Origin: Escherichia phage JN02 | Sequence record: MT782071.1 | Reading direction: 5' to 3' (one strand) | Length of the DNA: 64,000 bases | In this document: positions 18 through 45,217 of the stretch, piece by piece | How the letters are laid out: each line of letters begins with the position of its first letter | How positions within the stretch are numbered: position 1 is the first letter of the stretch | Notes under the pieces: generated by a model | Seen by the model: the letters and a program-made list of their open reading frames with translations, nothing else | The model's database searches: none | Told to the model about the DNA's origin: nothing | Made by a program: the position numbers and the translations under genes

Positions 18-332
18 TTATTCTTTAGGGAAGTTTTTAGAGTATGCATCATAAAGTTTATTACCAATACGGCGGAAGACTTTAGCTGCAAAACGGTTTT
101 CAGGGTTTTTAATCATGATTTGCATCATGTAAGTTCCTGCATCCGAAAGAGCTTCTTCATAGTACCCGTTAATTTCTTTAAGAGTCCTACGTTTACCACC
201 AGGACCATCAACAGTAATTTTCCATTTACCTGTAGAAGTGCGGCTCGGTGGCTCAACTTGTTCAATCCAAATATAACCACCTTCAACGCGTTGGTTGGCG
301 GATTCTGCAATAAATTCTTTATACGTTTTCAT
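18..332 (-). CDS. Internal (capsid-packaged) protein candidate, 104 aa, N-terminus MKTYKEFIAE
   Basis: ORF in track; N-terminal decapeptide matches the T4 capsid targeting sequence (MKTYQEFIAE) cleaved by gp21 after IAE; sits next to denV/e as the ip genes do in T4. Confidence 0.6.
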   Translation of the reverse strand: MKTYKEFIAESANQRVEGGYIWIEQVEPPSRTSTGKWKITVDGPGGKRRTLKEINGYYEEALSDAGTYMMQIMIKNPENRFAAKVFRRIGNKLYDAYSKNFPKE

Positions 333-362
333 TTTTGTTTCCTTGTTTGTTTTGATAGAGTA

Positions 363-392
363 ATTATACCATATTAATACTTAAGCGTAAAC
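363..392 (-). promoter_or_regulatory. Early sigma70-type promoter (-35 GTTTAC, -10 TATAAT on minus strand)
   Basis: Minus-strand reading GTTTAC-N18-TATAAT, about 30 nt upstream of the ATG at 332. Confidence 0.5.
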
Positions 393-395
393 AAT

Positions 396-656
396 TTAAG
401 CTTTACCGCCAGAAATAATTCCGAAGTTGTTAAAATCGTATCCAATATCGTCAACATCTACTTTAGGGCTTGCTACAACATAAGCAATTTCACTACGTTT
501 TGCATAGGTGTTGATTTCTTTACCATCGCCACCTAAGAAAAAATACCCATTACGTTTTAATGAGCCAAAGTCTTCCGCATCACCAATGAAAGCTTTAACT
601 TTAAATTTAGGACCTTTGGCATCTGCTTCAGCGATAAATTCTTGATACATTTTCAT
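396..656 (-). CDS. Internal protein candidate, 86 aa, N-terminus MKMYQEFIAE
   Basis: ORF in track; capsid-targeting-like N-terminus; 6 nt downstream of denV stop. Confidence 0.6.
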   Translation of the reverse strand: MKMYQEFIAEADAKGPKFKVKAFIGDAEDFGSLKRNGYFFLGGDGKEINTYAKRSEIAYVVASPKVDVDDIGYDFNNFGIISGGKA

Positions 657-662
657 TTTTCC

Positions 663-1076
663 TTAGTAAATTGATTTACCATAGTATTTGTACCAAGTAG
701 GACGTTGAGCAATTTTTTCATCTAAGCGAGCTTGACTTATCGCAATGGATGCTTCGGACGGGACATAATTATTACGAAATTCTGCAGGGATGTCGGAAAT
801 ATCCTGGACAGTCGTGTCCTTGATTTTGAAACCACGTTTCACGCATTCAGCGATTAGCTCGATTTGACGTAAACGTAAAAATTCGAGTTTGTCGTAAAAG
901 AATGTTACGTGACCTGTGCCTAAGATAAATGTTGGAGAGATTTTAAAATCCTTTACACGTTTACCGTTTTGAACATGTTTACGGACTGCACCAAATACGC
1001 GTGGTAATTCACGATACTCAGCCATAAGATGTTGGTCGGTCAGTTCAGAAACAAGTGTTAAATTGATACGAGTCAT
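663..1076 (-). CDS. denV: Endonuclease V (pyrimidine dimer DNA glycosylase/AP lyase)
   Basis: Translation from [12 protein letters not shown] is near-identical to T4 DenV as I recall it; 137 aa from that Met (ORF track begins 4 codons earlier at 1088). Confidence 0.93.
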
Positions 1077-1103
1077 AATTTCCTCCAAGTAGTTGATGAA
1101 TGT

Positions 1104-1133
1104 ATAGTATCAAAGTCCTTGGAGGAAGTAAAC
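1104..1133 (-). promoter_or_regulatory. Early promoter cassette (-35 GTTTAC, -10 TACTAT) with inverted repeat around the -10
   Basis: Minus-strand GTTTAC-N18-TACTAT; cctccaag / cttggagg inverted repeat flanks the -10. Confidence 0.5.
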
Positions 1134-1134
1134 A

Positions 1135-1416
1135 CTATTTTTCTGAAGCTCCTGAAATATATTTTTCAAGACGTTGTTTCATCAGCGAGCCGTTCTTAGC
1201 GATTTCTTCCGGTTTATCGCACATACGTAACAAGGCTTCAAGCTTAGCGATATCGCTGGTACGTTCAAATTTGCGAGTATCTATCTTACTAGCAAGTTCA
1301 GAAATACGTGCTAATAGACTTTCGGCTTCAACCAAAGCTGCACCTAGCTTAGTTGCAAATGTGTCAGTAGCTTCGTTAAGAATAGATTCTGATAAAAATT
1401 CACTATATGTTTTCAT
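1135..1416 (-). CDS. Internal protein candidate, 93 aa from [10 protein letters not shown]
   Basis: ORF track 1135..1431; internal Met gives a capsid-targeting-like N-terminus; overlaps start of e by 4 nt. Confidence 0.55.
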
Positions 1417-1901
1417 ATATACGCTTTCCAAGTTCCTGTTTTAAATGTTGAGATTACGCGTTTCGCGCGATTAGGTGTCTGACGATACCATTTAGATTGG
1501 GCTAGATTTACTGCCGCTTCATCCCAACGTTTCTGTTGAAGCATACGAAGAGAATTAGTAAAACCAGCGACGCCTGCTACACCCATTTGGAAGACCATAT
1601 TGACCAATGCACATCGACGAACAGCATCTAAAGAATCATATACCGGTTTAAGTTTAGCATTACCTAAGATTCCGCGAACGGCTTTATCAACGTCTTCATT
1701 AAATAGCTTTTCAGCCTCATCAAGGGTAATTGTACCGTTGCATTTACGGCCGATCATTCTGTCAAGTTCAGCTTTAGCTACGGCTAAAGACGGGTTCTTT
1801 GTTACTAAATGGCCTATGCCAATCGTCCAAAAGCCTTCAGTGTCTTTGTATAAAGTCAGTCTAAGACCTTCGTCATTACGAAGCATTTCAAATATATTCA
1901 T
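1413..1901 (-). CDS. e: Lysozyme (endolysin), T4 e-type, 162 aa
   Basis: [32 protein letters not shown]... closely matches T4 lysozyme; start taken at MNIF, 4 codons into the track ORF. Confidence 0.95.
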
Positions 1902-1935: not shown

Positions 1936-2394
1936 TTATAGGATGGTAGTGAGCACCTTATATAATGATTTGCCCATTACATATTCCCATTGAGAAGGTT
2001 TAATTAAAGCGAATGCATCAAATTCAGGAATCTGTCGTCCGTCTGGGAATGTATGATAGGAATTACAAACACTGTTTCTGAATTGCTCGTGCTCTACAGG
2101 GATGGTATATAGGAACAGATGAATATTCTTATTGTCTGAGTAATGATGTTCACCTAGGTCTTTCAGGAAGGCAGGGTCGTATTGTGTAAACCCAGTTTCT
2201 TCTTCGCATTCACGAATAGCGGCTTCGATAGGAGATTCACCAGGCTCGACACGACCTTTAGGAATATCCCACCGATGAGCTAAAGAACCTTTAGGACGAG
2301 AACCAGTTACACGCCCCATGAATAATTCTTTATCTTCGGTAAGGAAAATAATACCGGCTGATAGTTCTTTCACTTTATTTTTCTTACTCATCAT
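1936..2394 (-). CDS. nudE: Nudix hydrolase
   Basis: Nudix box GRVEPGESPIEAAIRECEEETG; about 152 aa; directly downstream of e as in T4 (e.1). Confidence 0.85.
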   Translation of the reverse strand: MMSKKNKVKELSAGIIFLTEDKELFMGRVTGSRPKGSLAHRWDIPKGRVEPGESPIEAAIRECEEETGFTQYDPAFLKDLGEHHYSDNKNIHLFLYTIPVEHEQFRNSVCNSYHTFPDGRQIPEFDAFALIKPSQWEYVMGKSLYKVLTTIL

Positions 2395-2635: not shown

Positions 2636-3108
2636 TCGGTAATAAAACGTTCAACTTCATTATTCTTGGCTTTTATCTTGTCTTTACGTTCCTGTAAACT
2701 ACTTTTAACAAGATTAATAATGATGCCTATAGTACCTCCACCAATAATACCACCAACAACACTTATGATACTAGATGCTAATAAGATAGCAATAATATCA
2801 ACAAAACCGAAAGAACTCACCTTAGTACTGAAAAACCATACCGACGGTACAAATATAATCCATCCTGTTATCCATTGGCACTTATTGAAAAACTTTTCAA
2901 GCTCAGCTTGAGTTGTTCGTATTACTTCATCGATAGGTTGATATCCATTAATGTATCTGTTCACGATAATACCTGCTGGCTGGTCGATTTTAAATTCTTG
3001 ACAAATATGTTTCACTAAGTAGGATGGACATCCTGTCCAATCTACTGAATAGTATGAAATACCTTCATTGCCATCGTCTATATTAGACCAATATGTTTTG
3101 TTAATCAT
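2617..3108 (-). CDS. Hypothetical membrane protein, 163 aa, C-terminus ...ERFITECRNLR
   Basis: ORF in track; hydrophobic helices (FVPSVWFF..., IISVVGGIIGGGTIGIIINL); C-terminal F-I-x-E-C-R motif. Confidence 0.55.
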   Translation of the reverse strand: MINKTYWSNIDDGNEGISYYSVDWTGCPSYLVKHICQEFKIDQPAGIIVNRYINGYQPIDEVIRTTQAELEKFFNKCQWITGWIIFVPSVWFFSTKVSSFGFVDIIAILLASSIISVVGGIIGGGTIGIIINLVKSSLQERKDKIKAKNNEVERFITECRNLR

Positions 3109-3794
3109 TACCAGCCTTCCATAGGGAATTCCAGATAAACTTGAGCATTGACACGAATTTCATTGGTAATCTTTTTAACTCGGTCTGTATTACGAGATAC
3201 ACGTCCGAACCAACGCCATCCATTACTAATTGCACGAGAACCAGTGTGCCATGTTTGCCAATCAAACTGAAGAAGAGTACGGTCCGGAGCTTCCCATTTC
3301 TCTAGTTCACCTTTTTCAATTTTTTCTAGGACTTCTTTGTGCCACTGGCGATAGATAAGTTCGCCATCAGGAATCTGACTGAACTCTGCAGTTCCTGTTG
3401 CAAAATGAGTAGGACACACATCAGCGTTAACAAGACCAAGAATATGTTCAGACAAATAGCGAGGATTGTCATAATCAGGTTGTCCTGCAGTAATAAAGTG
3501 TTGACCAACTGGAATATCAGGGCGTGGTACGTCATCATGGTGATATCCAGGAATAGCAGGATACCAACCAGGCATCAGCATGTGGACTCGTGAATCAAAT
3601 ACAACCTGGTCAGTGTTCCAATCATCTGGCAAGTTCATGATGAAGCTACGAGTAATTGGGCCGCCATTATTAAAAGCAAAATTCAAATCGCAGTTAAAGA
3701 ACATAGGCTCGTTTTTAATCCGATCGTTTTTAATCGCATGAGCAAAACCACCTACTGCACGAGCTTGACTATTAAACACTTTAGAACTATTCAT
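3108..3794 (-). CDS. Hypothetical protein, 228 aa
   Basis: ORF in track, tightly packed in the minus-strand operon. Confidence 0.6.
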   Translation of the reverse strand: MNSSKVFNSQARAVGGFAHAIKNDRIKNEPMFFNCDLNFAFNNGGPITRSFIMNLPDDWNTDQVVFDSRVHMLMPGWYPAIPGYHHDDVPRPDIPVGQHFITAGQPDYDNPRYLSEHILGLVNADVCPTHFATGTAEFSQIPDGELIYRQWHKEVLEKIEKGELEKWEAPDRTLLQFDWQTWHTGSRAISNGWRWFGRVSRNTDRVKKITNEIRVNAQVYLEFPMEGW

Positions 3795-3795
3795 A

Positions 3796-4101
3796 TTATT
3801 TTCCTCGACATTCTTTAATGAAATTTTCTAGATTGGTAGATTCAATAGCTTTTTTACGAGCTTCCGCGTGTTCTTCTTCGGACAATTTACGTTTATAATT
3901 GACCCAGACATTATGGTCGAAACCAGTCGTGGCATATAATAACAATGCTCCAACGAATAGCAAAAACGGCGATAAGAATACAAAACCAGGAACACCATCC
4001 ATATCGTAAGCCTTTTGTAATACTGCAACAGAAAGGGTTGCGTAAAAAGGCGATGCAAGTATTGTTAAAAGACCGATTCGATTGGTTTCTGTTAATTTCA
4101 T
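3796..4101 (-). CDS. Hypothetical small membrane protein, 101 aa, C-terminus ...ENFIKECRGK
   Basis: ORF in track; two hydrophobic segments; shared C-terminal motif. Confidence 0.55.
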   Translation of the reverse strand: MKLTETNRIGLLTILASPFYATLSVAVLQKAYDMDGVPGFVFLSPFLLFVGALLLYATTGFDHNVWVNYKRKLSEEEHAEARKKAIESTNLENFIKECRGK

Positions 4102-4126
4102 AATATTCTCCTCAAGTTGATAGGAC

Positions 4127-4156
4127 TACTATAACATGGCCCTATCAGTTTGTACA
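4127..4156 (-). promoter_or_regulatory. Early promoter cassette (-35 GTACAA, -10 TATAGT) with flanking inverted repeat
   Basis: ttgataggactactataacat element between ORFs. Confidence 0.5.
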
Positions 4157-4157
4157 C

Positions 4158-4358
4158 TTATTTTGACATTTCTTCGATGTCACGACGATACCCATCACGA
4201 ACTTCACGAAGAGCTTCAAGGCCACACATAGGCTCGATACCAGTAATGTGAACTTGATTAATCTGATACTCTACATCTTCTAACTGAGCGAAAACATAAC
4301 GACGTTCTGCTGCACAACCAGGTTTAGCTTTACCGAAACGTTTATTCAAAGTAGTCAT
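4158..4358 (-). CDS. Hypothetical protein, about 66 aa
   Basis: ORF track 4158..4376; internal Met (MTTLNKRF) has GGAG Shine-Dalgarno 8 nt upstream. Confidence 0.45.
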   Translation of the reverse strand: MTTLNKRFGKAKPGCAAERRYVFAQLEDVEYQINQVHITGIEPMCGLEALREVRDGYRRDIEEMSK

Positions 4359-4396
4359 TTTTATATCTCCATTCACTCATTTGTTTTGATAGGTCT

Positions 4397-4426
4397 ATAG
4401 TATCAACAACTACAGACCTTGTAAAC
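4397..4426 (-). promoter_or_regulatory. Early promoter cassette (-35 GTTTAC, -10 TACTAT)
   Basis: Minus-strand GTTTAC-N18-TACTAT; ggtctatag / ctacagacc inverted repeat. Confidence 0.5.
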
Positions 4427-4438
4427 TGTTTTGTGAAA

Positions 4439-5395
4439 TTATTTGAAAGGTTTTACCATATGGAAATTTTGTTTGAAACGTTTTACGTAATCGTTGTGTC
4501 CTAAGCTTTGGTACATACTTACAACTTTGCTGTAGTTTTCCCAGGCGTATTCACGGAACCAACCGGAGGTGATGCTTGTGCAGACTTTTTCTAATGCCAT
4601 CATGAAACTGGCTTCAGGGTTAATTTCAAAGTTATTAGGAATCTGAGAACGTTCTAACGCTAGTACACATGATTCTTCGTATACACCGGCCAATTTGACC
4701 ATTTCTGGTAATGATTCGAACTTCTCGCGTGAGGTCATGACTTCAGAACCATCTTTCATATAAAATGTATACGCTGGACGGTCTGTTAGCGCAATGGCTT
4801 CATGAATAGTATCATGGTCATATGTATAGATGTCATCTTTAAAGAACGCACTTTTAGAAGTGTCAAGAACTGGGTGAGCATAGTTCAAGGTTTCTTTCTG
4901 GCGTTTCAGCATAATTTCAGTAAGTTCATCGTTCAGTGTAACACCTTTACCACGAAGATACTGAATATGGTTCATAGTCTTTAAAAAGAATGGATTATTT
5001 TTCTTGAAACGATGAGACATCTTAATTGCAAGACATATCTCAGGAGTTGCCCAATAAAACCCGTTCAAACGGTCTTTAGTCAAATTTTTCTTGGCGTATT
5101 TTAAAAGGTCATAAGAAGACGTGAAATCTTCAGGAGTGAGTTCACCTACTAATTCACGGACATTAGTGATTGCCGGAACAATATATGCTTCAAAATGAGT
5201 TTCGCGTCCATTATGGAAGCATTTGAAAACTTGGACATCAGGGTTATCTTGATGAACATATACACCCATCATTTGATTTTTGAATGCATTCCAAGAACCT
5301 TGGTCTGCAATAAAGTCCCAGTCACTATTTTTGATAGCGTTAGAATCAATAAGACCGTGATAGTGAAGTGCACGAGAACCAATAACTAACATCAT
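4439..5395 (-). CDS. Hypothetical protein, 318 aa, with possible nucleotidyltransferase-like N-terminal motif
   Basis: ORF in track; N-terminal VIGSRALHYHG...SDWDF resembles the G[SG]...DxD signature of Pol-beta-like nucleotidyltransferases (weak, by eye only). Confidence 0.55.
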   Translation of the reverse strand: MMLVIGSRALHYHGLIDSNAIKNSDWDFIADQGSWNAFKNQMMGVYVHQDNPDVQVFKCFHNGRETHFEAYIVPAITNVRELVGELTPEDFTSSYDLLKYAKKNLTKDRLNGFYWATPEICLAIKMSHRFKKNNPFFLKTMNHIQYLRGKGVTLNDELTEIMLKRQKETLNYAHPVLDTSKSAFFKDDIYTYDHDTIHEAIALTDRPAYTFYMKDGSEVMTSREKFESLPEMVKLAGVYEESCVLALERSQIPNNFEINPEASFMMALEKVCTSITSGWFREYAWENYSKVVSMYQSLGHNDYVKRFKQNFHMVKPFK

Positions 5396-7250: not shown

Positions 7251-7815
7251 ATTCTCTACATTCCATAATAAATTGCTCAAGGATTAAATTGTTAGTGAAA
7301 TTAGGACTAACAACCATAGTTTCATAAAGCGCATCAATAGCACTTAAAGCATCAACTCTTTTAAGCAAAGGCTTGCCTTCATACATAGTTTCAGAATCGA
7401 TGATTAACGTAAAGTAATATTTTTTATTATCGACTAGAACTTCTGTATCGATATAAAACATATTAGACCTCAGAAGCTTATCTCTAAAACCATAATAATC
7501 TTCAGAGCGTTCGCTGATATATTCCAATTCAGTGTTTAAACAACAAACAGACCACGTAGGAGCAACGAAATCAGTGAATCTAATATCATGGTCTGCAACT
7601 AGTTTAGCAATAGCTCCGATATCATGAATCATAATACCTGGGGCTAATAAAGATTTTCGGTTATTTGCATATTCAGTTGTCTCATAAGAAGACGACCAGT
7701 ACCATTTACGTCCAGTTGCAACATATCGTAATGAATCAACTAAAGACGTAGGTGGATTTACCTTATTTCGGAACTCTTCGAACATTGAGTCAATATCATT
7801 ATTTTGGTTTCGCAT
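7219..7815 (-). CDS. Hypothetical protein, about 198 aa, containing ...EQFIMECREY... near the C-terminus
   Basis: ORF track 7219..7836; Met at 7815 has GGAG Shine-Dalgarno 6 nt upstream. Confidence 0.5.
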   Translation of the reverse strand: MRNQNNDIDSMFEEFRNKVNPPTSLVDSLRYVATGRKWYWSSSYETTEYANNRKSLLAPGIMIHDIGAIAKLVADHDIRFTDFVAPTWSVCCLNTELEYISERSEDYYGFRDKLLRSNMFYIDTEVLVDNKKYYFTLIIDSETMYEGKPLLKRVDALSAIDALYETMVVSPNFTNNLILEQFIMECREYVKANPVHAK

Positions 7816-7832
7816 GTTAACTCCTTTATTAT

Positions 7833-7856
7833 CCAAAAGGAGGACCGGAGTCCTCC
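7833..7856 (-). terminator. Rho-independent terminator (stem ggaggac / gtcctcc, tetraloop, T-tract on minus strand)
   Basis: Hairpin followed by TTTTGG on minus strand, downstream of ORF 7865..8473. Confidence 0.5.
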
Positions 7857-7864
7857 GTATTATT

Positions 7865-8473
7865 TTATTTCAAAGAGTTAATATATTCTTGTACATCAGC
7901 AGAAGTGGTTTCGACACCAGCTGGAGTGCCATTGAACGTTTCAACACGAGTCAGAGTGTCTTCGATATCAACCTTAGTCAGTGCAGCGATTTCAATTACA
8001 TCATCAGCCGTAGAGATACCAAGGGCATTGGCTGCTCGAGTTTCACGAATGTATTCGAGTTTGATTGCCAGGTTCTGACGAGCATCATCAAGTTCAACCA
8101 CCTTACGAGCAATTTCAATTCGCATAGCAGCATACCCATCAGCTTTTGTATTAAGTTGTTCGGCAGTTCGACGATACAGAAGACCAAGCTTAGCATGCAT
8201 GGTAACATCTTGTCCTTCAGCCATGAGCTTACGAATTTCACGTTCCTTAGAAGCGGCTTGTTTGTTCTTTTCATTAACAAGTTCGCGAATACGTTTTTCT
8301 TCATTAATAGATTTAACAGAAGCCGTTTTTAGTTCTTTGATCTGGGTAATCAACTTATCTGCAGCTGCGTTATACTGTTCTTCGACAGTCAGATTTTTAG
8401 CCATAGCAGTACCCAGTTTAGTGCGGATGAATTCAACAAGTTTCTTCAGTGTGTTCATATTATTACCTTTCAA
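7865..8473 (-). CDS. Hypothetical coiled-coil protein, about 200 aa
   Basis: ORF in track; charged, heptad-like composition. Confidence 0.55.
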
Positions 8474-12754: not shown

Positions 12755-12784
12755 ACTATATCATAGTCCTATCAGCATGTAAAC
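12755..12784 (-). promoter_or_regulatory. Early promoter cassette (-35 GTTTAC, -10 TATAGT) with perfect inverted repeat
   Basis: gataggact...agtcctatc around the -10. Confidence 0.55.
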
Positions 12785-12787
12785 TAC

Positions 12788-13075
12788 TTACAGAAGAGTT
12801 TTTGCAATAATTTTAAGCTGAGCTACAGAAATATGCTTAGCTTTAAACAGTGCAGTCTCTTCAGCAGGAGAGATAACAATAGTAGCGCCATCTTTCTTAG
12901 CAGACCATCCATCCCCTAAGTAAACAGTACCTTTTACTTCTTCGCCGTCAACCAGACTAATCATTGGTTTACCCTCACGTCCTTTATTTGCTTTAATAAC
13001 TTCGGAAGTAAGGGTTGCTTCGGTCAGAGTAGAAACGTTAGCATCAGGTGATATAAATTCTTTATAGGTTTTCAT
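12788..13075 (-). CDS. Internal protein I-like capsid-targeted protein, 95 aa precursor
   Basis: N-terminus MKTYKEFI...; L-T-E at residues 17-19 would give a 76-aa mature protein; position next to 57B matches ipI in T4. Confidence 0.55.
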   Translation of the reverse strand: MKTYKEFISPDANVSTLTEATLTSEVIKANKGREGKPMISLVDGEEVKGTVYLGDGWSAKKDGATIVISPAEETALFKAKHISVAQLKIIAKTLL

Positions 13076-13109
13076 TTTATTTCCTTGAGGTCGTTTATTT
13101 GATAGGATG

Positions 13110-13139
13110 ATAGTAACACGCCATCATCCTTATGTAAAC
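13110..13139 (-). promoter_or_regulatory. Early promoter cassette (-35 GTTTAC, -10 TACTAT)
   Basis: aggatgat / atcatcct inverted repeat around the -10. Confidence 0.5.
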
Positions 13140-13152
13140 TGTTTTGTGAAAA

Positions 13153-39911: not shown

Positions 39912-41483
39912 ATGAAATTTAATATCTTAAGTTTGTTTGCTCCATGGGCAAAAATGGACGAACGTGATTACAAAGACCAAGAAAAAGAAAATTTAGAATC
40001 GATCACCACACCAAAATTGGACGATGGCGCTAAAGAATACGAAGTATCTGAAAATGAAGCACAGCAAACATATAATGCTATGTTTCAGAGAATGTTCGGT
40101 AGTCAAGAACCAGGGCTCAAATCAACCCGTGAATTAATCGATACGTATCGAAATTTGATGACGAACTATGAAGTGGATAACGCGGTCTCTGAAATAGTTT
40201 CCGATGCTATCGTATATGAAGATGATACAGAAGTCGTTTCTATAAATTTAGACAACACAAAATTTAGTCCAAATATCAAATCAATGATGTTGGATGAATT
40301 TAACGAAGTGTTAAATCATTTATCTTTCCAACGTAAAGGTTCAGATCATTTTAGACGTTGGTATGTGGATTCTCGAATTTTCTTCCATAAAATTATTGAC
40401 CCTAAACGCCCTAAAGAAGGTATTAAAGAGCTTCGTCGTTTAGACCCACGTCAAGTTCAATATGTCCGTGAAGTTATTACAACCACTGAAGCCGGTGTTA
40501 AAATAGTCAAGGGTTATAAAGAATATTTCATTTATGACACATCACACGAATCTTATGCTTGTGATGGCCGCATATATGAAGCTGGCACAAAAATAAAAAT
40601 CCCTAAAGCTGCGATTGTTTATGCCCATTCCGGTTTAGTTGATTGTTGTGGTAAAAATATCATCGGTTATTTGCATCGGGCTATTAAGCCAGCGAACCAA
40701 TTAAAACTTCTTGAAGATGCCGTTGTAATTTATCGTATTACTCGTGCTCCCGATCGTCGTGTATGGTACGTTGATACAGGTAATATGCCTTCAAGAAAAG
40801 CAGCAGAACATATGCAACATGTTATGAATACGATGAAAAACCGTATTGCATATGATGCTACTACAGGCAAGATTAAAAACCAGCAGCATATTATGTCGAT
40901 GACCGAAGATTATTGGTTACAACGACGTGATGGTAAAGCAGTAACAGAAGTTGACACATTACCAGGTGCAGATAATACCGGAAATATGGAAGATGTACGT
41001 TGGTTCCGTAATGCGCTTTATATGGCTTTACGTATTCCTATTACCCGTATTCCAAGTGACCAAGGTGGTATACAGTTTGATGCTGGTACTTCTATTACAC
41101 GAGATGAATTGTCATTTGGTAAATTTATTCGTGAGCTGCAACATAAATTTGAAGAGATATTCCTAGACCCGCTTAAAACTAATTTAATTCTTAAAGGAAT
41201 TATTACAGAAGATGAGTGGAATGATGAAATAAATAATATTAAGATAAAATTTCATCGGGATAGTTATTTCTCGGAATTAAAGGATGCTGAGATTCTGGAG
41301 CGTCGCATTAATATGCTTCAGATGGCCGAACCATTTATTGGTAAATATATTTCTCACAGAACAGCTATGAAAGATATTCTTCAGATGTCTGACGAGGAAA
41401 TTGAACAAGAGGCTAAGCAAATTGAAGAAGAGTCGAAAGAGGCTCGTTTCCAAGACCCCGACCAAGAACAAGAGGATTTTTAA
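39912..41483 (+). CDS. 20: Portal vertex protein gp20
   Basis: 523 aa. Confidence 0.95.
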
Positions 41484-41719
41484 TGGACGATTTAATTCAA
41501 GCTATTAAATCAAACGACCTCGTTGCTACTCGAAAGTTTTTTGAAAGTGCAATGGCAGAAAAAACGGTTCGTTTGATTGAAGCACGCAAAGCAGAAATCG
41601 CTTCTCAATTTTTGATTGAAGGCGAAGAACCTGAAGAAGAAAAGAAAGCTAAAGCTTCGGAAGATGACGCTGATGAAGGCGATGACGACGAAGACGAAGA
41701 TGATGAGGACGATGAATAA
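41483..41719 (+). CDS. 67: Prohead core protein gp67
   Basis: 78 aa with acidic D/E-rich C-terminus. Confidence 0.85.
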
Positions 41720-42144
41720 TGTATCTTATCCCTGAATCTTATGAATTGGTACTCGAAAATGTCGAAGCACTTATTCCTGAAGCACAGGGCCGAATCGATG
41801 CATTGTCTTCTGCTCTCGATATTGACGATATAAATACTATTATCGAGAACATGCTTGAAACTGAAACGGATTTAGCTGTTGCAATGGCTTCCATTATTAA
41901 TGAAGAACAGTTAAATGAGTTTATCGTTAAACATGTTTCTTCTCGTGGTGAAGTCACCCGCACTAAAGACCGTAAAACTCGTGAACGTAACGCGTTCCAA
42001 ACAACTGGTCTTTCTAAAGCAAAACGTAGACAAATCGCTCGTAAGGTCGTTAAAGCTAAAAAAGCTAACCCTTCAGGCCAAGTTAAAGGCTTGCGTAAGC
42101 GTAAAAAAGCTCTTAAACGTCGTAAAGCATTAGGATTAAGCTAA
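41719..42144 (+). CDS. 68: Prohead core protein gp68
   Basis: 141 aa as in T4. Confidence 0.85.
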
Positions 42145-42785
42145 TGAATAAACCCGAGTTACTTATTGAAACTTGGGGTCAACCCGGTGAGATTATTGAT
42201 GGCGTTCCAATGTTGGAATCTCATGATGGAAAAGATTCTGGCTTAAAACCAGGGCTTTATATAGAAGGTATTTTTCTTCAGGCAGAGGTTGTTAACCGAA
42301 ATAAACGTTTATATCCTAAACGCGTTTTGGAAAAAGCAGTAAGTGACTATATTAAAGAACAAGTCGAAACCAAACAAGCCCTTGGAGAATTAAACCATCC
42401 ACCTCGTGCAAATGTTGACCCTATGCAAGCCGCTATCATTATTGAAGATATGTGGTGGAAAGGAAACGATGTATATGGACGTGCTAGAATTATTGAAGGC
42501 GACCATGGTCCCGGTGATAAATTAGCTGCTAATATACGAGCTGGTTGGATTCCAGGTGTTTCCTCTCGTGGTCTTGGTTCTTTAACCGACACCAATAAAG
42601 GGTACCGTATCGTGAACGAAGGATTTAAATTAACCGTCGGCGTAGATGCCGTATGGGGACCTTCTGCTCCAGATGCTTGGGTTACTCCTAAACAAATATC
42701 AGAATCAGAAAATTCGGTGGAAATCACCAAAAACAGTGCTGATGAAGCATTTAAAGCTCTCGCAGAGAGTTTAAAAGCATTATAA
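42144..42785 (+). CDS. 21: Prohead core scaffold protease gp21
   Basis: 213 aa; conserved position. Confidence 0.9.
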   Translation: MNKPELLIETWGQPGEIIDGVPMLESHDGKDSGLKPGLYIEGIFLQAEVVNRNKRLYPKRVLEKAVSDYIKEQVETKQALGELNHPPRANVDPMQAAIIIEDMWWKGNDVYGRARIIEGDHGPGDKLAANIRAGWIPGVSSRGLGSLTDTNKGYRIVNEGFKLTVGVDAVWGPSAPDAWVTPKQISESENSVEITKNSADEAFKALAESLKAL

Positions 42786-42818: not shown

Positions 42819-43631
42819 ATGATCAAAGAACAACTTTTGAAAGAAGCTCAGAATATCGAGACTTCAGTTGCTCTTAATAGTGTTTTCGAATCAGTAGAAC
42901 TGTCTCCGGACGTTAAAGCTAATTTCAGCACTGTATTCGAAGCCACCGTTAAGCAGGAAGCAGTCAAACTAGCTGAATCTCATATCAAAGCTATCGCCGA
43001 AAAAGCCGAAGAAGAAGTTGAAAAGGCTAAAGAAGATGCTGAAGAGAAAGCTGATAAAAAATTGGCTGAACAAGCTTCTAAATTCCTGGACCATCTTGCA
43101 AAAGAATGGCTCGCAGAAAACCAAATCGCAGTTGATAAAGGCATTAAAGCTGATTTGTTCGAATCCATGCTTGGTGGTCTGAAAGAACTGTTTGTTGAAC
43201 ATAACGTTGTTGTTCCAGAAGAATCTGTAGATGTTGTAGCAGAAATGGAAGAAGAGCTGGCCGAACATAAAGAAGAAACCGCTCGTTTGTTCGAAGAAGT
43301 TACCAAACGTGATGCATATATCAATTACGTTCAGCGTGAAACCGCTATTAATGAAAGCGTAAAAGACCTGACTGAATCTCAGAAAGAAAAAGTTATTGGC
43401 CTGGTTGAAGGTATGGATTATTCTGACGCATTTGGTACTAAGTTAACTGCTATTGTAGAAATGGTTAAAGGTTCTACTAAAGAAGAAGCCGCTATTACCG
43501 AAAGTATAAATACAGTTGACAATGACGCTGCCGGTCTTAATTTTGTTGCCGAAGCAGTTGACACTACCACAACTCAGGTAGAACAGAATTCTAATGTAAG
43601 TTTATATGCGAAAGTCGCATCTCGTTTCTAA
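42819..43631 (+). CDS. 22: Prohead core scaffold protein gp22
   Basis: 270 aa, highly charged helical. Confidence 0.9.
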   Translation: MIKEQLLKEAQNIETSVALNSVFESVELSPDVKANFSTVFEATVKQEAVKLAESHIKAIAEKAEEEVEKAKEDAEEKADKKLAEQASKFLDHLAKEWLAENQIAVDKGIKADLFESMLGGLKELFVEHNVVVPEESVDVVAEMEEELAEHKEETARLFEEVTKRDAYINYVQRETAINESVKDLTESQKEKVIGLVEGMDYSDAFGTKLTAIVEMVKGSTKEEAAITESINTVDNDAAGLNFVAEAVDTTTTQVEQNSNVSLYAKVASRF

Positions 43632-43648: not shown

Positions 43649-45217
43649 ATGACTACTATCAAAACTAAAGCTCAGCTCGTAGACAAATGGAAAGAACTGC
43701 TGGAAGGTGAAGGCCTGCCGGAAATCGCTAATAGCAAGCAGGCTATTATCGCTAAAATCTTCGAAAACCAGGAAAAAGATTTCGAAGTATCCCCTGAATA
43801 TAAAGACGAGAAAATCGCTCAGGCATTTGGTTCTTTCTTGACCGAAGCTGAAATTGGTGGTGACCACGGTTATAATGCTCAGAACATCGCAGCAGGTCAA
43901 ACCTCTGGTGCAGTAACCCAAATTGGGCCAGCAGTTATGGGTATGGTTCGTCGTGCTATTCCTAATCTGATCGCTTTTGATATTTGTGGTGTTCAGCCTA
44001 TGAACAGCCCTACCGGTCAGGTATTTGCTCTCCGTGCAGTATATGGTAAAGACCCTATCGCTGCTGGCGCTAAAGAAGCTTTCCATCCGATGTATGCCCC
44101 AGACGCGATGTTCTCTGGTCAGGGTGCTGCTAAGAAATTCCCAGCTCTGGCTGCTGACACTACTACTGTTGTAGGTGATATCTATACTCACTTCTTCCAA
44201 GAAACTGGTACTGTATATCTGCAAGCTTCTGCTGTAGTAACACTTGATTCTGGTGCAACTGATGCAGCTAAATTAGATGCCGAAGTTAAGAAACACATGG
44301 AAGCTGGTGCACTGGTAGAAATCGCTGAAGGTATGGCTACTTCTATCGCTGAACTTCAGGAAGGCTTCAATGGTTCTACCGACAACCCGTGGAACGAAAT
44401 GGGCTTCCGTATCGACAAACAAGTTATTGAAGCTAAATCTCGCCAGCTGAAAGCTGCTTACTCCATCGAATTGGCACAAGACCTCCGTGCAGTACACGGT
44501 ATGGATGCTGATGCTGAACTGAGCGGTATTCTTGCTACTGAAATTATGCTAGAAATCAACCGTGAAGTTGTTGATTGGATTAACTACTCGGCACAGGTTG
44601 GTAAATCTGGTATGACCCTGACTCCGGGTTCTAAAGCTGGCGTATTTGACTTCCAGGACCCGATTGATATCCGTGGTGCTCGTTGGGCCGGTGAAAGCTT
44701 TAAATCTCTGTTGTTCCAGATTGATAAAGAAGCAGTTGAAATTGCTCGTCAAACCGGTCGTGGTGAAGGTAACTTCATTATCGCTTCCCGTAACGTAGTT
44801 AACGTACTGGCTTCAGTTGACACTGGTATTTCTTACGCTGCACAGGGTCTGGCTTCTGGTTTTAATACCGACACTACTAAGTCTGTATTTGCCGGTGTAC
44901 TTGGTGGTAAATACCGCGTATACATCGACCAGTATGCTAAACAGGATTACTTCACCGTTGGTTACAAAGGCGCTAACGAAATGGATGCAGGTATTTACTA
45001 TGCTCCTTACGTTGCACTTACCCCACTGCGTGGTTCCGATCCTAAGAACTTCCAGCCGGTAATGGGCTTTAAAACTCGTTACGGTATCGGTGTTAACCCG
45101 TTTGCTGAAAGTTCCCTGCAGGCTCCAGGTGCTCGCATCCAGTCCGGTATGCCGTCTATCCTGAACAGCCTTGGTAAGAACGCTTACTTCCGCCGTGTAT
45201 ATGTAAAAGGCATCTAA
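43649..45217 (+). CDS. 23: Major capsid protein gp23
   Basis: 522 aa; MTTIKTKAQLVDKWKELLEGEGLPEIANS... as in T4 gp23. Confidence 0.95.
   Translation: MTTIKTKAQLVDKWKELLEGEGLPEIANSKQAIIAKIFENQEKDFEVSPEYKDEKIAQAFGSFLTEAEIGGDHGYNAQNIAAGQTSGAVTQIGPAVMGMVRRAIPNLIAFDICGVQPMNSPTGQVFALRAVYGKDPIAAGAKEAFHPMYAPDAMFSGQGAAKKFPALAADTTTVVGDIYTHFFQETGTVYLQASAVVTLDSGATDAAKLDAEVKKHMEAGALVEIAEGMATSIAELQEGFNGSTDNPWNEMGFRIDKQVIEAKSRQLKAAYSIELAQDLRAVHGMDADAELSGILATEIMLEINREVVDWINYSAQVGKSGMTLTPGSKAGVFDFQDPIDIRGARWAGESFKSLLFQIDKEAVEIARQTGRGEGNFIIASRNVVNVLASVDTGISYAAQGLASGFNTDTTKSVFAGVLGGKYRVYIDQYAKQDYFTVGYKGANEMDAGIYYAPYVALTPLRGSDPKNFQPVMGFKTRYGIGVNPFAESSLQAPGARIQSGMPSILNSLGKNAYFRRVYVKGI

Follow-up and report, generated by a model that had tools for sequence, protein, structure and literature searches.

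Internal-protein genes around denV in the RB69-type Escherichia phage JN02 and their probable role as injected anti-restriction proteins

[quoted passage not shown] The Ip families, including Ip10 and Ip5, are said to have been first described by Repoila et al. in 1994, and that study reportedly recognized ten Ip ORFs, polymorphism at two Ip loci and a leader 11 residues long, together with an early promoter in flanking segments of ~70 bp. The gene class, the leader, the two variable loci and the anti-restriction logic have all been in the literature since the 1990s. The 1994 work is the reference given for the leader and for the existence of ten or more Ips (PMC12373910). It has been known that IPI* of phage T4 inhibits GmrSD (PMC3012670), and that IPIII is needed for T4 infection of ECOR17 and works without its leader when it is expressed in the cell (PMC9391042). 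Each of the proteins Ip1, Ip2 and Ip3 inhibits a GmrSD enzyme of its own, and none protects against the enzyme of another (PMC12373910); the leader-bearing protein Bas37_0260 inhibits McrBC (preprint 10.1101/2025.11.20.689424). Mutagenesis of the leader indicated that residues 4 and 7 target the protein while residues 8 and 10 direct its processing (PMC9026906). In the case of RB69, the DNA contains arabinosyl-hydroxymethylcytosine (arabinosyl-hmC) and is a GmrSD substrate, and the RB69 IPI protein is four residues away from that of T4 (PMC6024577).

Here, we analysed a window of 64,000 nucleotides from Escherichia phage JN02 (MT782071.1). A first-pass annotation of this window had pointed to three small ORFs around denV, each beginning with the decapeptide that loads internal proteins into the T4 head, and had proposed them as candidate novel injected anti-defence proteins. 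The three ORFs were confirmed at 18..332, 396..656 and 1135..1416, all on the minus strand.

Gene order and protein families of the denV-e interval

The region shares 99% identity with Escherichia phage GADS24 and 97.9% with RB69 (genus Mosigvirus). The denV gene, encoding endonuclease V (663..1076, minus strand), was identified by Pfam PF03013 (E 2.7e-14), by phrog_1183 (E 2.4e-62) and by the RB69 annotation, and is placed between ORF 396..656 and ORF 1135..1416, among the Ip cassettes. The upstream neighbour of ORF 1135..1416 is e, the T4-type lysozyme gene (1413..1901, minus strand; Pfam PF00959 and annotations), and nudE (1936..2394) lies beyond e. Of the two polymorphic Ip loci, denV-e and 57B-tRNA, the three genes occupy the former: they sit between vs.8 and e, around denV, in the same interval that is filled by ipII and ipIII in T4. 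Their counterparts in the RefSeq record of RB69 are RB69ORF124c, labelled hypothetical, and RB69p125 and RB69p127, both labelled 'internal head protein'. In addition, a fifth leader-bearing gene, the homologue of RB69ORF123c with the leader MKTYQEFITE, starts ~8 nt past the left edge of the window.

When we compared the gene order with that of T4, the T4 order was vs.8-denV-ipII-ipIII-e, whereas the window has nudE-e-ip5-denV-ip...-vs.8. The interleaved position of denV does differ from the T4 order, as had been noted from the sequence, but it is not special to this window. The order e-ip5-denV-ip is also that of RB69, Gaprivervirus VR25 and Tequatrovirus IME340, although in IME340 the last cassette is an IPIII-like gene, and the 2.4-kb block was found with at least 80% coverage in 126 phage records.

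The gene at 18..332 (minus strand) encodes the internal protein Ip10, a protein of 104 aa with a predicted mature form of 94 aa and pI 9.6. It is identical to Ip10 of phage Pol (CAA84455.1) at 92 of 97 residues (95%; E 7e-69) and falls in the same 90% cluster. It is also 72% identical to genes annotated ip10 in SP18 and VR25, and it matches phrog_3966. More distant Ip10 relatives, with ~55% identity, adjoin the lysozyme gene in Enterobacter, Klebsiella and Kosakonia phages. When an Ip10 profile was searched against 1.84 billion representatives, one true relative was obtained, a 97-aa leader-bearing protein. Six other matches of the profile (FG-GAP, RTX, SdrD and similar) were long repeat proteins whose scores summed weak stretches, and they were set aside as artefacts, as were weak Pfam and PDB hints to CsgH, filamin and HLA, which lay far under the cut-offs.

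The gene at 396..656 (minus strand) encodes an unnamed internal protein of the RB69ORF125c/VR7ORF127c family, 86 aa in length with a predicted mature form of 76 aa and pI 6.4. Its ATG lies 6 nt past the denV stop codon, and its Shine-Dalgarno sequence TAAGGA overlaps that stop. The body is 95% identical to that of RB69ORF125c and 74% identical to VR25 gp125 (VR7ORF127c), and tblastn returned 217 phage records, including Gelderlandvirus. The RefSeq label for the family is 'internal head protein', and the relatives in Gelderlandvirus Salmonella phages carry this same label with no Ip number.

The gene at 1135..1416 (minus strand) encodes an Ip5-family internal protein of 93 aa whose leader ends |SILNE|A, and its ATG at 1416 overlaps the stop codon of e (ATGA). 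With the leader removed, the protein shows 47% identity to T2 Ip5 over 74 residues (E 2e-17), and phrog_3499 recognizes the window protein and T2 Ip5 almost equally (E 2e-46 vs 2e-47). It is 90% identical to VR25 ip5. Both ORF 18..332 and ORF 1135..1416 can be named by similarity to known internal proteins, the former to named Ip10 proteins and the latter to the bodies of T2/T6 Ip5.

We then compared the bodies of these proteins. After the first ten residues were removed, no two of the three bodies were similar by BLASTP at E<=0.01, nor was any of them similar to IPI, IPII, IPIII, Ip7 or RB69ORF123c, and hhalign with leader-trimmed family alignments gave less than 3% probability in all 28 pairs. 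These results agree with the earlier view that the bodies are unrelated to each other, and neither BLASTP nor hhalign revealed similarity of the mature proteins to the GmrSD inhibitors IPI*, IPII and IPIII. Two apparent kinships were examined in the same way, that of Ip10 with RB69ORF123c through shared phrog_3966 and that of the 396..656 protein with Ip7 through shared phrog_2667; leader-trimmed BLASTP and hhalign gave no support to either, and we ascribe these co-memberships either to heterogeneity of the PHROGs or to the leader that the proteins share. Searches of Pfam, NCBIfam and PDB sequences gave nothing above threshold for the three bodies, and a word-indexed homology search returned close phage relatives alone. 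Clear homology to known non-injected proteins, which the first-pass annotation had named as evidence that would count against its proposal, was found neither in these three databases nor, with the Ip10 profile, among the 1.84 billion representatives. AlphaFold2 gave unusable models both for mature Ip10 (pLDDT 48, from a 3-sequence alignment) and for the mature 396..656 protein (pLDDT 46, from a 4-sequence alignment). By tblastn, 189-496 phage homologues of the proteins were found.

The suggestion that these proteins are novel has to be withdrawn, since ORF 18..332 is Pol Ip10 at 95% identity, ORF 1135..1416 belongs to the Ip5 family, and RefSeq already has the label 'internal head protein' for ORF 396..656. 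Based on these results, the three genes are members of known internal-protein families in a known variable locus.

Leaders, cleavage sites and promoter modules

The three small ORFs start with a capsid-targeting sequence (CTS), as had been recognized from the sequence. The leader of ORF 18..332 is MKTYKEFIAE followed by S, and that of ORF 396..656 is MKMYQEFIAE followed by A. When we searched the six-frame translation of the window with the pattern MK.[YF].EF, four matches were found, each at the start of an ATG-initiated ORF, while 200 Markov-1 resamples gave a mean of 0.025 and a maximum of 1. The nucleotide sequences of the three leaders make up a family of 32-nt direct repeats with 81-84% identity. 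Judged against the form MKTYxEF(I/L)xE of T4-type internal proteins, all three ORFs carry the leader with Tyr4 and Phe7, these two residues are retained in every copy compared, and the gp21 cleavage motif (L/I)-x-Glu is found at the end of each leader (IAE|S, IAE|A, and LSE|S plus LNE|A).

The fourth leader-bearing gene is an IPI homologue (12788..13075, minus strand; 95 aa; phrog_4363) with a cleavage site LTE|A past residue 19. Its residues 20-95 align with residues 1-76 of T4 IPI* (PDB 2JUB) at E 6e-42 with 4 differences. Since this alignment starts right after LTE, the (L/I)-x-E rule clearly holds in this phage. The expected leader-removing enzyme, the prohead protease gp21, is encoded at 42144..42785 (plus strand); it is nearly identical to T4 gp21 (PDB 5JBL), which it matches over residues 1-211 at E 6e-125. 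The scaffolding core proteins are encoded in the window as well, gp22 at 42819..43631 (plus strand; identified from ORFs and the RB69 annotation), and gp67 and gp68 at 41483..42144, just upstream of gp21/gp22. The window also encodes the portal protein gp20, and gp23 (43649..45217) retains the T4 processing site FLTE|AEIGG.

The cleavage site of the Ip5-type protein needs separate consideration. This protein holds both LSE|S at residue 10 and LNE|A at residue 15. In the Ip5 family alignment the residue-15 site alone is conserved (LTVTTLNE|A in VR25, ATKTTITE|S in T2 and YQNLSLNE|A in RB69), and Glu10 is absent from VR25 Ip5, from T2 Ip5 and from RB69's own copy. Because the family conserves only the residue-15 site, the mature N-terminus of the Ip5-type protein is probably residue 16. 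The view that gp21 cleaves a decapeptide from each of the three proteins is consequently retained for ORFs 18..332 and 396..656, whose site is at residue 10, and is given up for the Ip5-type protein, whose conserved site is at residue 15. In the RB69 reference, the leader of ORF127c is scrambled and ORF124c is truncated, and the scrambled leader still has Tyr4, Phe7 and LNE|A. In the searchable literature we found neither N-terminal sequences nor a virion proteome that covers the three proteins, and no usable proteome of an RB69-type phage.

We also scanned IMG/VR for DNA encoding MKTYxEFIxE. At least 120 stretches with at least 139 ORFs were obtained, and among the matches listed there were at least 113 unique complete peptides of 52-610 aa. 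When these listed matches were clustered together with 11 reference internal proteins, at least 53 body clusters resulted, 2 of which consisted of reference proteins alone. Cargos at or above the Pfam cut-offs among the listed matches were a 2H phosphoesterase, a GNAT acetyltransferase and a cytidylyltransferase-like protein. The breadth of these predicted cargos in IMG/VR shows a leader that would work as a portable tag.

Promoters of the locus were then examined. A T4 early-type promoter module with its leader lies 5' of Ip10 (363..392, minus strand) and consists of GTTTAC, 18 nt and a TG-extended TATAAT. It scored 10/12 in the sigma-70 scan, with TG before the second hexamer, and was also found in the pattern scan, and the Ip10 leader RNA showed no significant fold (z -0.46). 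The denV leader (1071..1136, minus strand), directly 3' of the Ip5-type gene, contains an early-type promoter GTTTAC..TACTAT (1104..1133) in a 10-bp hairpin. This hairpin, formed by an inverted repeat, pairs the denV Shine-Dalgarno sequence, and the RNA fold has an energy of -18.5 kcal/mol (z -3.16).

Modules of the form GTTTAC...TAnnnT flank the Ip cassettes of the window. One lies 5' of Ip10 (392..363), another follows the Ip5-type gene on its 3' side (1133..1104), and IPI is bracketed by two more (13139..13110 and 12784..12755); the upstream regions of T4 ipII and ipIII, T2 ip5 and ip7, and RB69 p156 could be aligned with them. Such a module is missing 5' of ORFs 396..656 and 1135..1416, which are coupled to denV and e, respectively. 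No exact late promoter TATAAATA was found near the three genes, and the region upstream of e gave 7/8 matches at most; synthesis at the time of prohead assembly is therefore assumed from read-through and from the coupling to e.

Compared with RB69, the window has no Ip7-family cassette RB69p156. The promoter/leader module found ahead of p156 in RB69 is connected here to the IPI gene, and the crossover lies in the first leader codons. At this junction, recombination within the shared module has left the direct trace of a cassette gained or lost. The arrangement also resembles the picture of the Ip loci that Repoila et al. are said to have drawn in 1994.

Packaging, injection and possible targets

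Based on these observations, we suggest that the three genes are, with good probability, three of the five Ip cassettes of an RB69-type T-even phage, and that their products are packaged, injected and directed against type IV restriction. In the proposed mechanism, each precursor would carry the T4 capsid-targeting leader, with Tyr4 and Phe7 as the targeting residues, and the leader would bring the precursor into the gp22/gp67/gp68 scaffolding core of the prohead. The gp21 protease would then cut past (L/I)-x-Glu, at residue 10 in Ip10 and in the 396..656 protein (IAE|S and IAE|A) and most likely at residue 15 (LNE|A) in the Ip5-type protein. The mature proteins of ~8-11 kDa are expected to stay in the head with the DNA and to enter the cell with it. 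There, each of them would most likely disarm one modification-dependent type IV enzyme (GmrSD- or McrBC-like), which would otherwise cut the arabinosyl-hydroxymethylcytosine DNA of the phage. We infer the injection and the anti-defence role of the three proteins by analogy with the described internal proteins, and on the same analogy an anti-type-IV role would be the best supported.

Other targets at DNA entry have to be considered. The proteins may be injected anti-defence proteins that act on type I/III restriction-modification, on BREX, or on abortive-infection or signalling systems, and we judge this unlikely, but worth weighing. First, the bodies are unrelated to Ip1-3. Second, Ip4-10 gave no reproducible inhibition of GmrSD variants in work with glucosyl-hmC T-even phages and a limited enzyme panel (PMC12373910 Supplementary Fig. 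9), and in view of this result the target class assigned to Ip5 and Ip10 is a tentative one. Third, the leader is fused to other enzymes in uncultivated viral contigs; since the 2H phosphoesterase, the GNAT acetyltransferase and the cytidylyltransferase-like protein are among its cargos, the leader system is not tied to one target class. On the contrary, every leader-bearing protein with a known target (Ip1, Ip2, Ip3 and Bas37_0260) acts on a type IV enzyme, and because the GmrSD tests were made with glucosyl-hmC phages and few enzymes, the negative results leave type IV targets possible for an arabinosyl-hmC phage.

A related possibility, which we put forward tentatively, is that one or more of the three proteins acts against a defence with which internal proteins have so far not been connected. 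The 396..656 protein, which is without an Ip number in the database labels seen, would be the best candidate. Its target could be an arabinosyl-hydroxymethylcytosine-specific type IV enzyme or a non-restriction system, and the protein itself could have a fold without a known relative.

It is also conceivable that the three are packaged proteins without a specific host target, whose role would be a general physical one, such as to bind or neutralise the DNA in the head or to help it to be packaged or ejected. Mature Ip10 is basic, with 16 Lys and Arg in 94 residues and the pI of 9.6 given above, lysines of T4 internal proteins contact DNA phosphates in the head (PMC3012670), and the lack of reproducible GmrSD inhibition by Ip4-10 would also be accommodated. 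We nevertheless consider this explanation doubtful, since the other two mature proteins are near neutral (pI 6.3-8.1), the presence/absence polymorphism, the unrelated bodies and the shuffling of cassettes fit an arms race better, and all three T4 Ips proved to have specific targets. The idea that the leader is a relic and that the proteins are unpackaged, ordinary early cytoplasmic proteins, to which the strong early-type promoter driving Ip10, the lack of an exact late promoter near the genes and the damage tolerated in RB69 (scrambled ORF127c leader and truncated ORF124c) might lend themselves, is very improbable, because different genera retain the leader, including Tyr4, Phe7 and (L/I)-x-E, although their bodies have diverged to 50-70% identity, even the scrambled RB69 copy keeps Tyr4, Phe7 and LNE|A, the same early-promoter module is shared in alignments by the ip genes of T4 and T2, and the Ip5-type gene is coupled to e.

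Packaging, injection and an action against type IV restriction are accordingly the reading that we prefer, and its consequences are of some practical interest. Since internal proteins that are injected are already at work when expression of the phage genes begins, they would shape which E. coli strains are infectable by a therapeutic T-even phage. Published targets exist for Ip1, Ip2, Ip3 and Bas37_0260, and Ip5, Ip10 and the RB69ORF125c family are orphans. Because RB69-type phages carry arabinosyl-hmC DNA, the three proteins would be reasonable probes for enzymes that recognise this modification.

Comparison with known internal and injected proteins

The T4 proteins IPI-III share several features with the three genes of the window. 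They have the capsid-targeting leader, the (L/I)-x-E site for gp21 and the early-promoter/leader module; they are found at the same two polymorphic loci (denV-e and 57B-tRNA); and all of them are small, dispensable proteins whose bodies show no relationship to one another. However, detailed comparison revealed differences. First, the bodies encoded in the window have no sequence or profile similarity to IPI*, IPII and IPIII. Second, denV is located between the cassettes in the window, whereas it is outside of them in T4. Third, two of the three window genes have no promoter of their own and are coupled to e or denV. Finally, each of the T4 proteins Ip1-3 has an identified GmrSD target, unlike the three proteins described here.

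The named families are closer. Ip10 of Pol, SP18, VR7 and VR25 is the nearest system for ORF 18..332, with the identity to the Pol protein reaching 95%. ORF 1135..1416 is in the same PHROG as Ip5 of T2, T6 and RB32 and 47% identical to the T2 protein. The ip5 genes of T2 and RB32, however, are found in the other Ip locus, beside 57B, while those of the window and of VR25 lie between e and denV, and the window variant differs from the rest of the Ip5 family in adding Glu10 (LSE|S) to the residue-15 site.

Bas37_0260, compared by its description, is a T-even protein encoded by an Ip-locus gene and has only the packaging leader in common with IPI-III. It is needed against a type IV restriction system, and its target has been shown experimentally. 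The Dar proteins of phage P1 (DarA, DarB and Hdf) offer a more distant parallel: they have no known homology to the proteins of the window, they follow a Dar assembly hierarchy and not a 10-residue leader cleaved by a gp21-type protease, and their targets are type I restriction-modification systems. The Dar proteins resemble the proposed behaviour of the three internal proteins in that they are loaded into the head, injected with the DNA and protect it from restriction at entry (PMC12810830).

Leader-bearing genes beside Ip10 and at the 57B-ipI locus

Besides the three genes around denV, two further genes with a T4-type capsid-targeting leader were identified. The fourth, an IPI homologue at 12788..13075 (minus strand), was recognized by its leader motif and by alignment to T4 IPI* (PDB 2JUB), from which residues 20-95 of its product differ at 4 positions. 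Its leader reads MKTYKEFISPDANVSTLTE with the cut before Ala; Glu10 is absent and cleavage falls after residue 19. The Ip7-family cassette RB69p156, located between 57B and ipI in RB69, is missing from the window (13076..13152 versus 7750..8187 of the RB69 locus L006), and IPI is here fused to the promoter/leader module found ahead of p156 in RB69, the junction lying within the first leader codons. This junction is the recombination footprint of a cassette gained or lost.

The fifth gene, the homologue of RB69ORF123c, lies just left of window position 1 (1321..1650 in GADS24, L002; 2663..2992 in RB69, L001). It encodes 109 aa beginning MKTYQEFITE, with the cut before Val, and is directly downstream of Ip10 (18..332, minus strand), so that the denV-region cluster comprises four cassettes, not three, in this lineage.

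Family assignments, reference copies and spread of the block

Both Ip10 and RB69ORF123c matched phrog_3966, and the 396..656 protein also matched phrog_2667 (Ip7). When the leaders were trimmed, comparisons revealed no relation between Ip10 and RB69ORF123c, nor between the 396..656 protein and Ip7. Both PHROGs are cases of database lumping. So is the 90% protein cluster containing RB69ORF125c, which also includes denV proteins, presumably via fused or mis-called ORFs.

Two genes of the RB69 reference genome carry frameshifts. In ORF127c (L001 4136..4417), leader residues 5-12 are scrambled by a compensating -1/+1 pair (MKTYMNFYQNLSLNE), despite which Tyr4, Phe7 and LNE followed by Ala at the cut are retained, while ORF124c (3061..3333) is cut to 90 aa by a +1 G insertion. 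These changes are either lab-strain mutations or 2003 sequence errors.

Phages classed as Tequatrovirus (records IME340, L127; LF73P3; slur14) carry the Ip5-type protein at 98.9% identity, and IME340 contains the entire e-ip5-denV-ip-ip10 block, adjoining an IPIII-like gene. Hence the block travels between genera.

Leader fusions in uncultivated viral contigs

In IMG/VR uncultivated viral contigs (loci L093, L119/L120 at 3985..4524, L100/L106 and L055), the exact T4-type leader MKTYxEFIxE is joined to enzymes, which are candidate injected enzymes. The cargos comprise a cytidylyltransferase-like protein (PF01467), a 2H phosphoesterase (PF13563) with weak Acb1 similarity, a GNAT acetyltransferase (PF13508) and, by a weak match, an NTase+HEPN-like protein. 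A gene for a gp32-like single-strand DNA-binding protein is also present on L119. Among the leader-bearing matches listed from the IMG/VR scan and added reference proteins, there were at least 53 body clusters, two consisting solely of the added proteins.

A predicted hairpin in the denV leader

The denV leader (1071..1136, minus strand) contains a 10-bp hairpin, CUUCCUCCAAG/CUUGGAGGAA, with a predicted RNA fold of -18.5 kcal/mol (z -3.2), in which the denV Shine-Dalgarno is paired. An early-type promoter (GTTTAC..TACTAT) lies inside the hairpin, and therefore transcripts begun there would be without the 5' arm. This arrangement resembles the T4-style switches in which translation differs between read-through and promoter-proximal transcripts.
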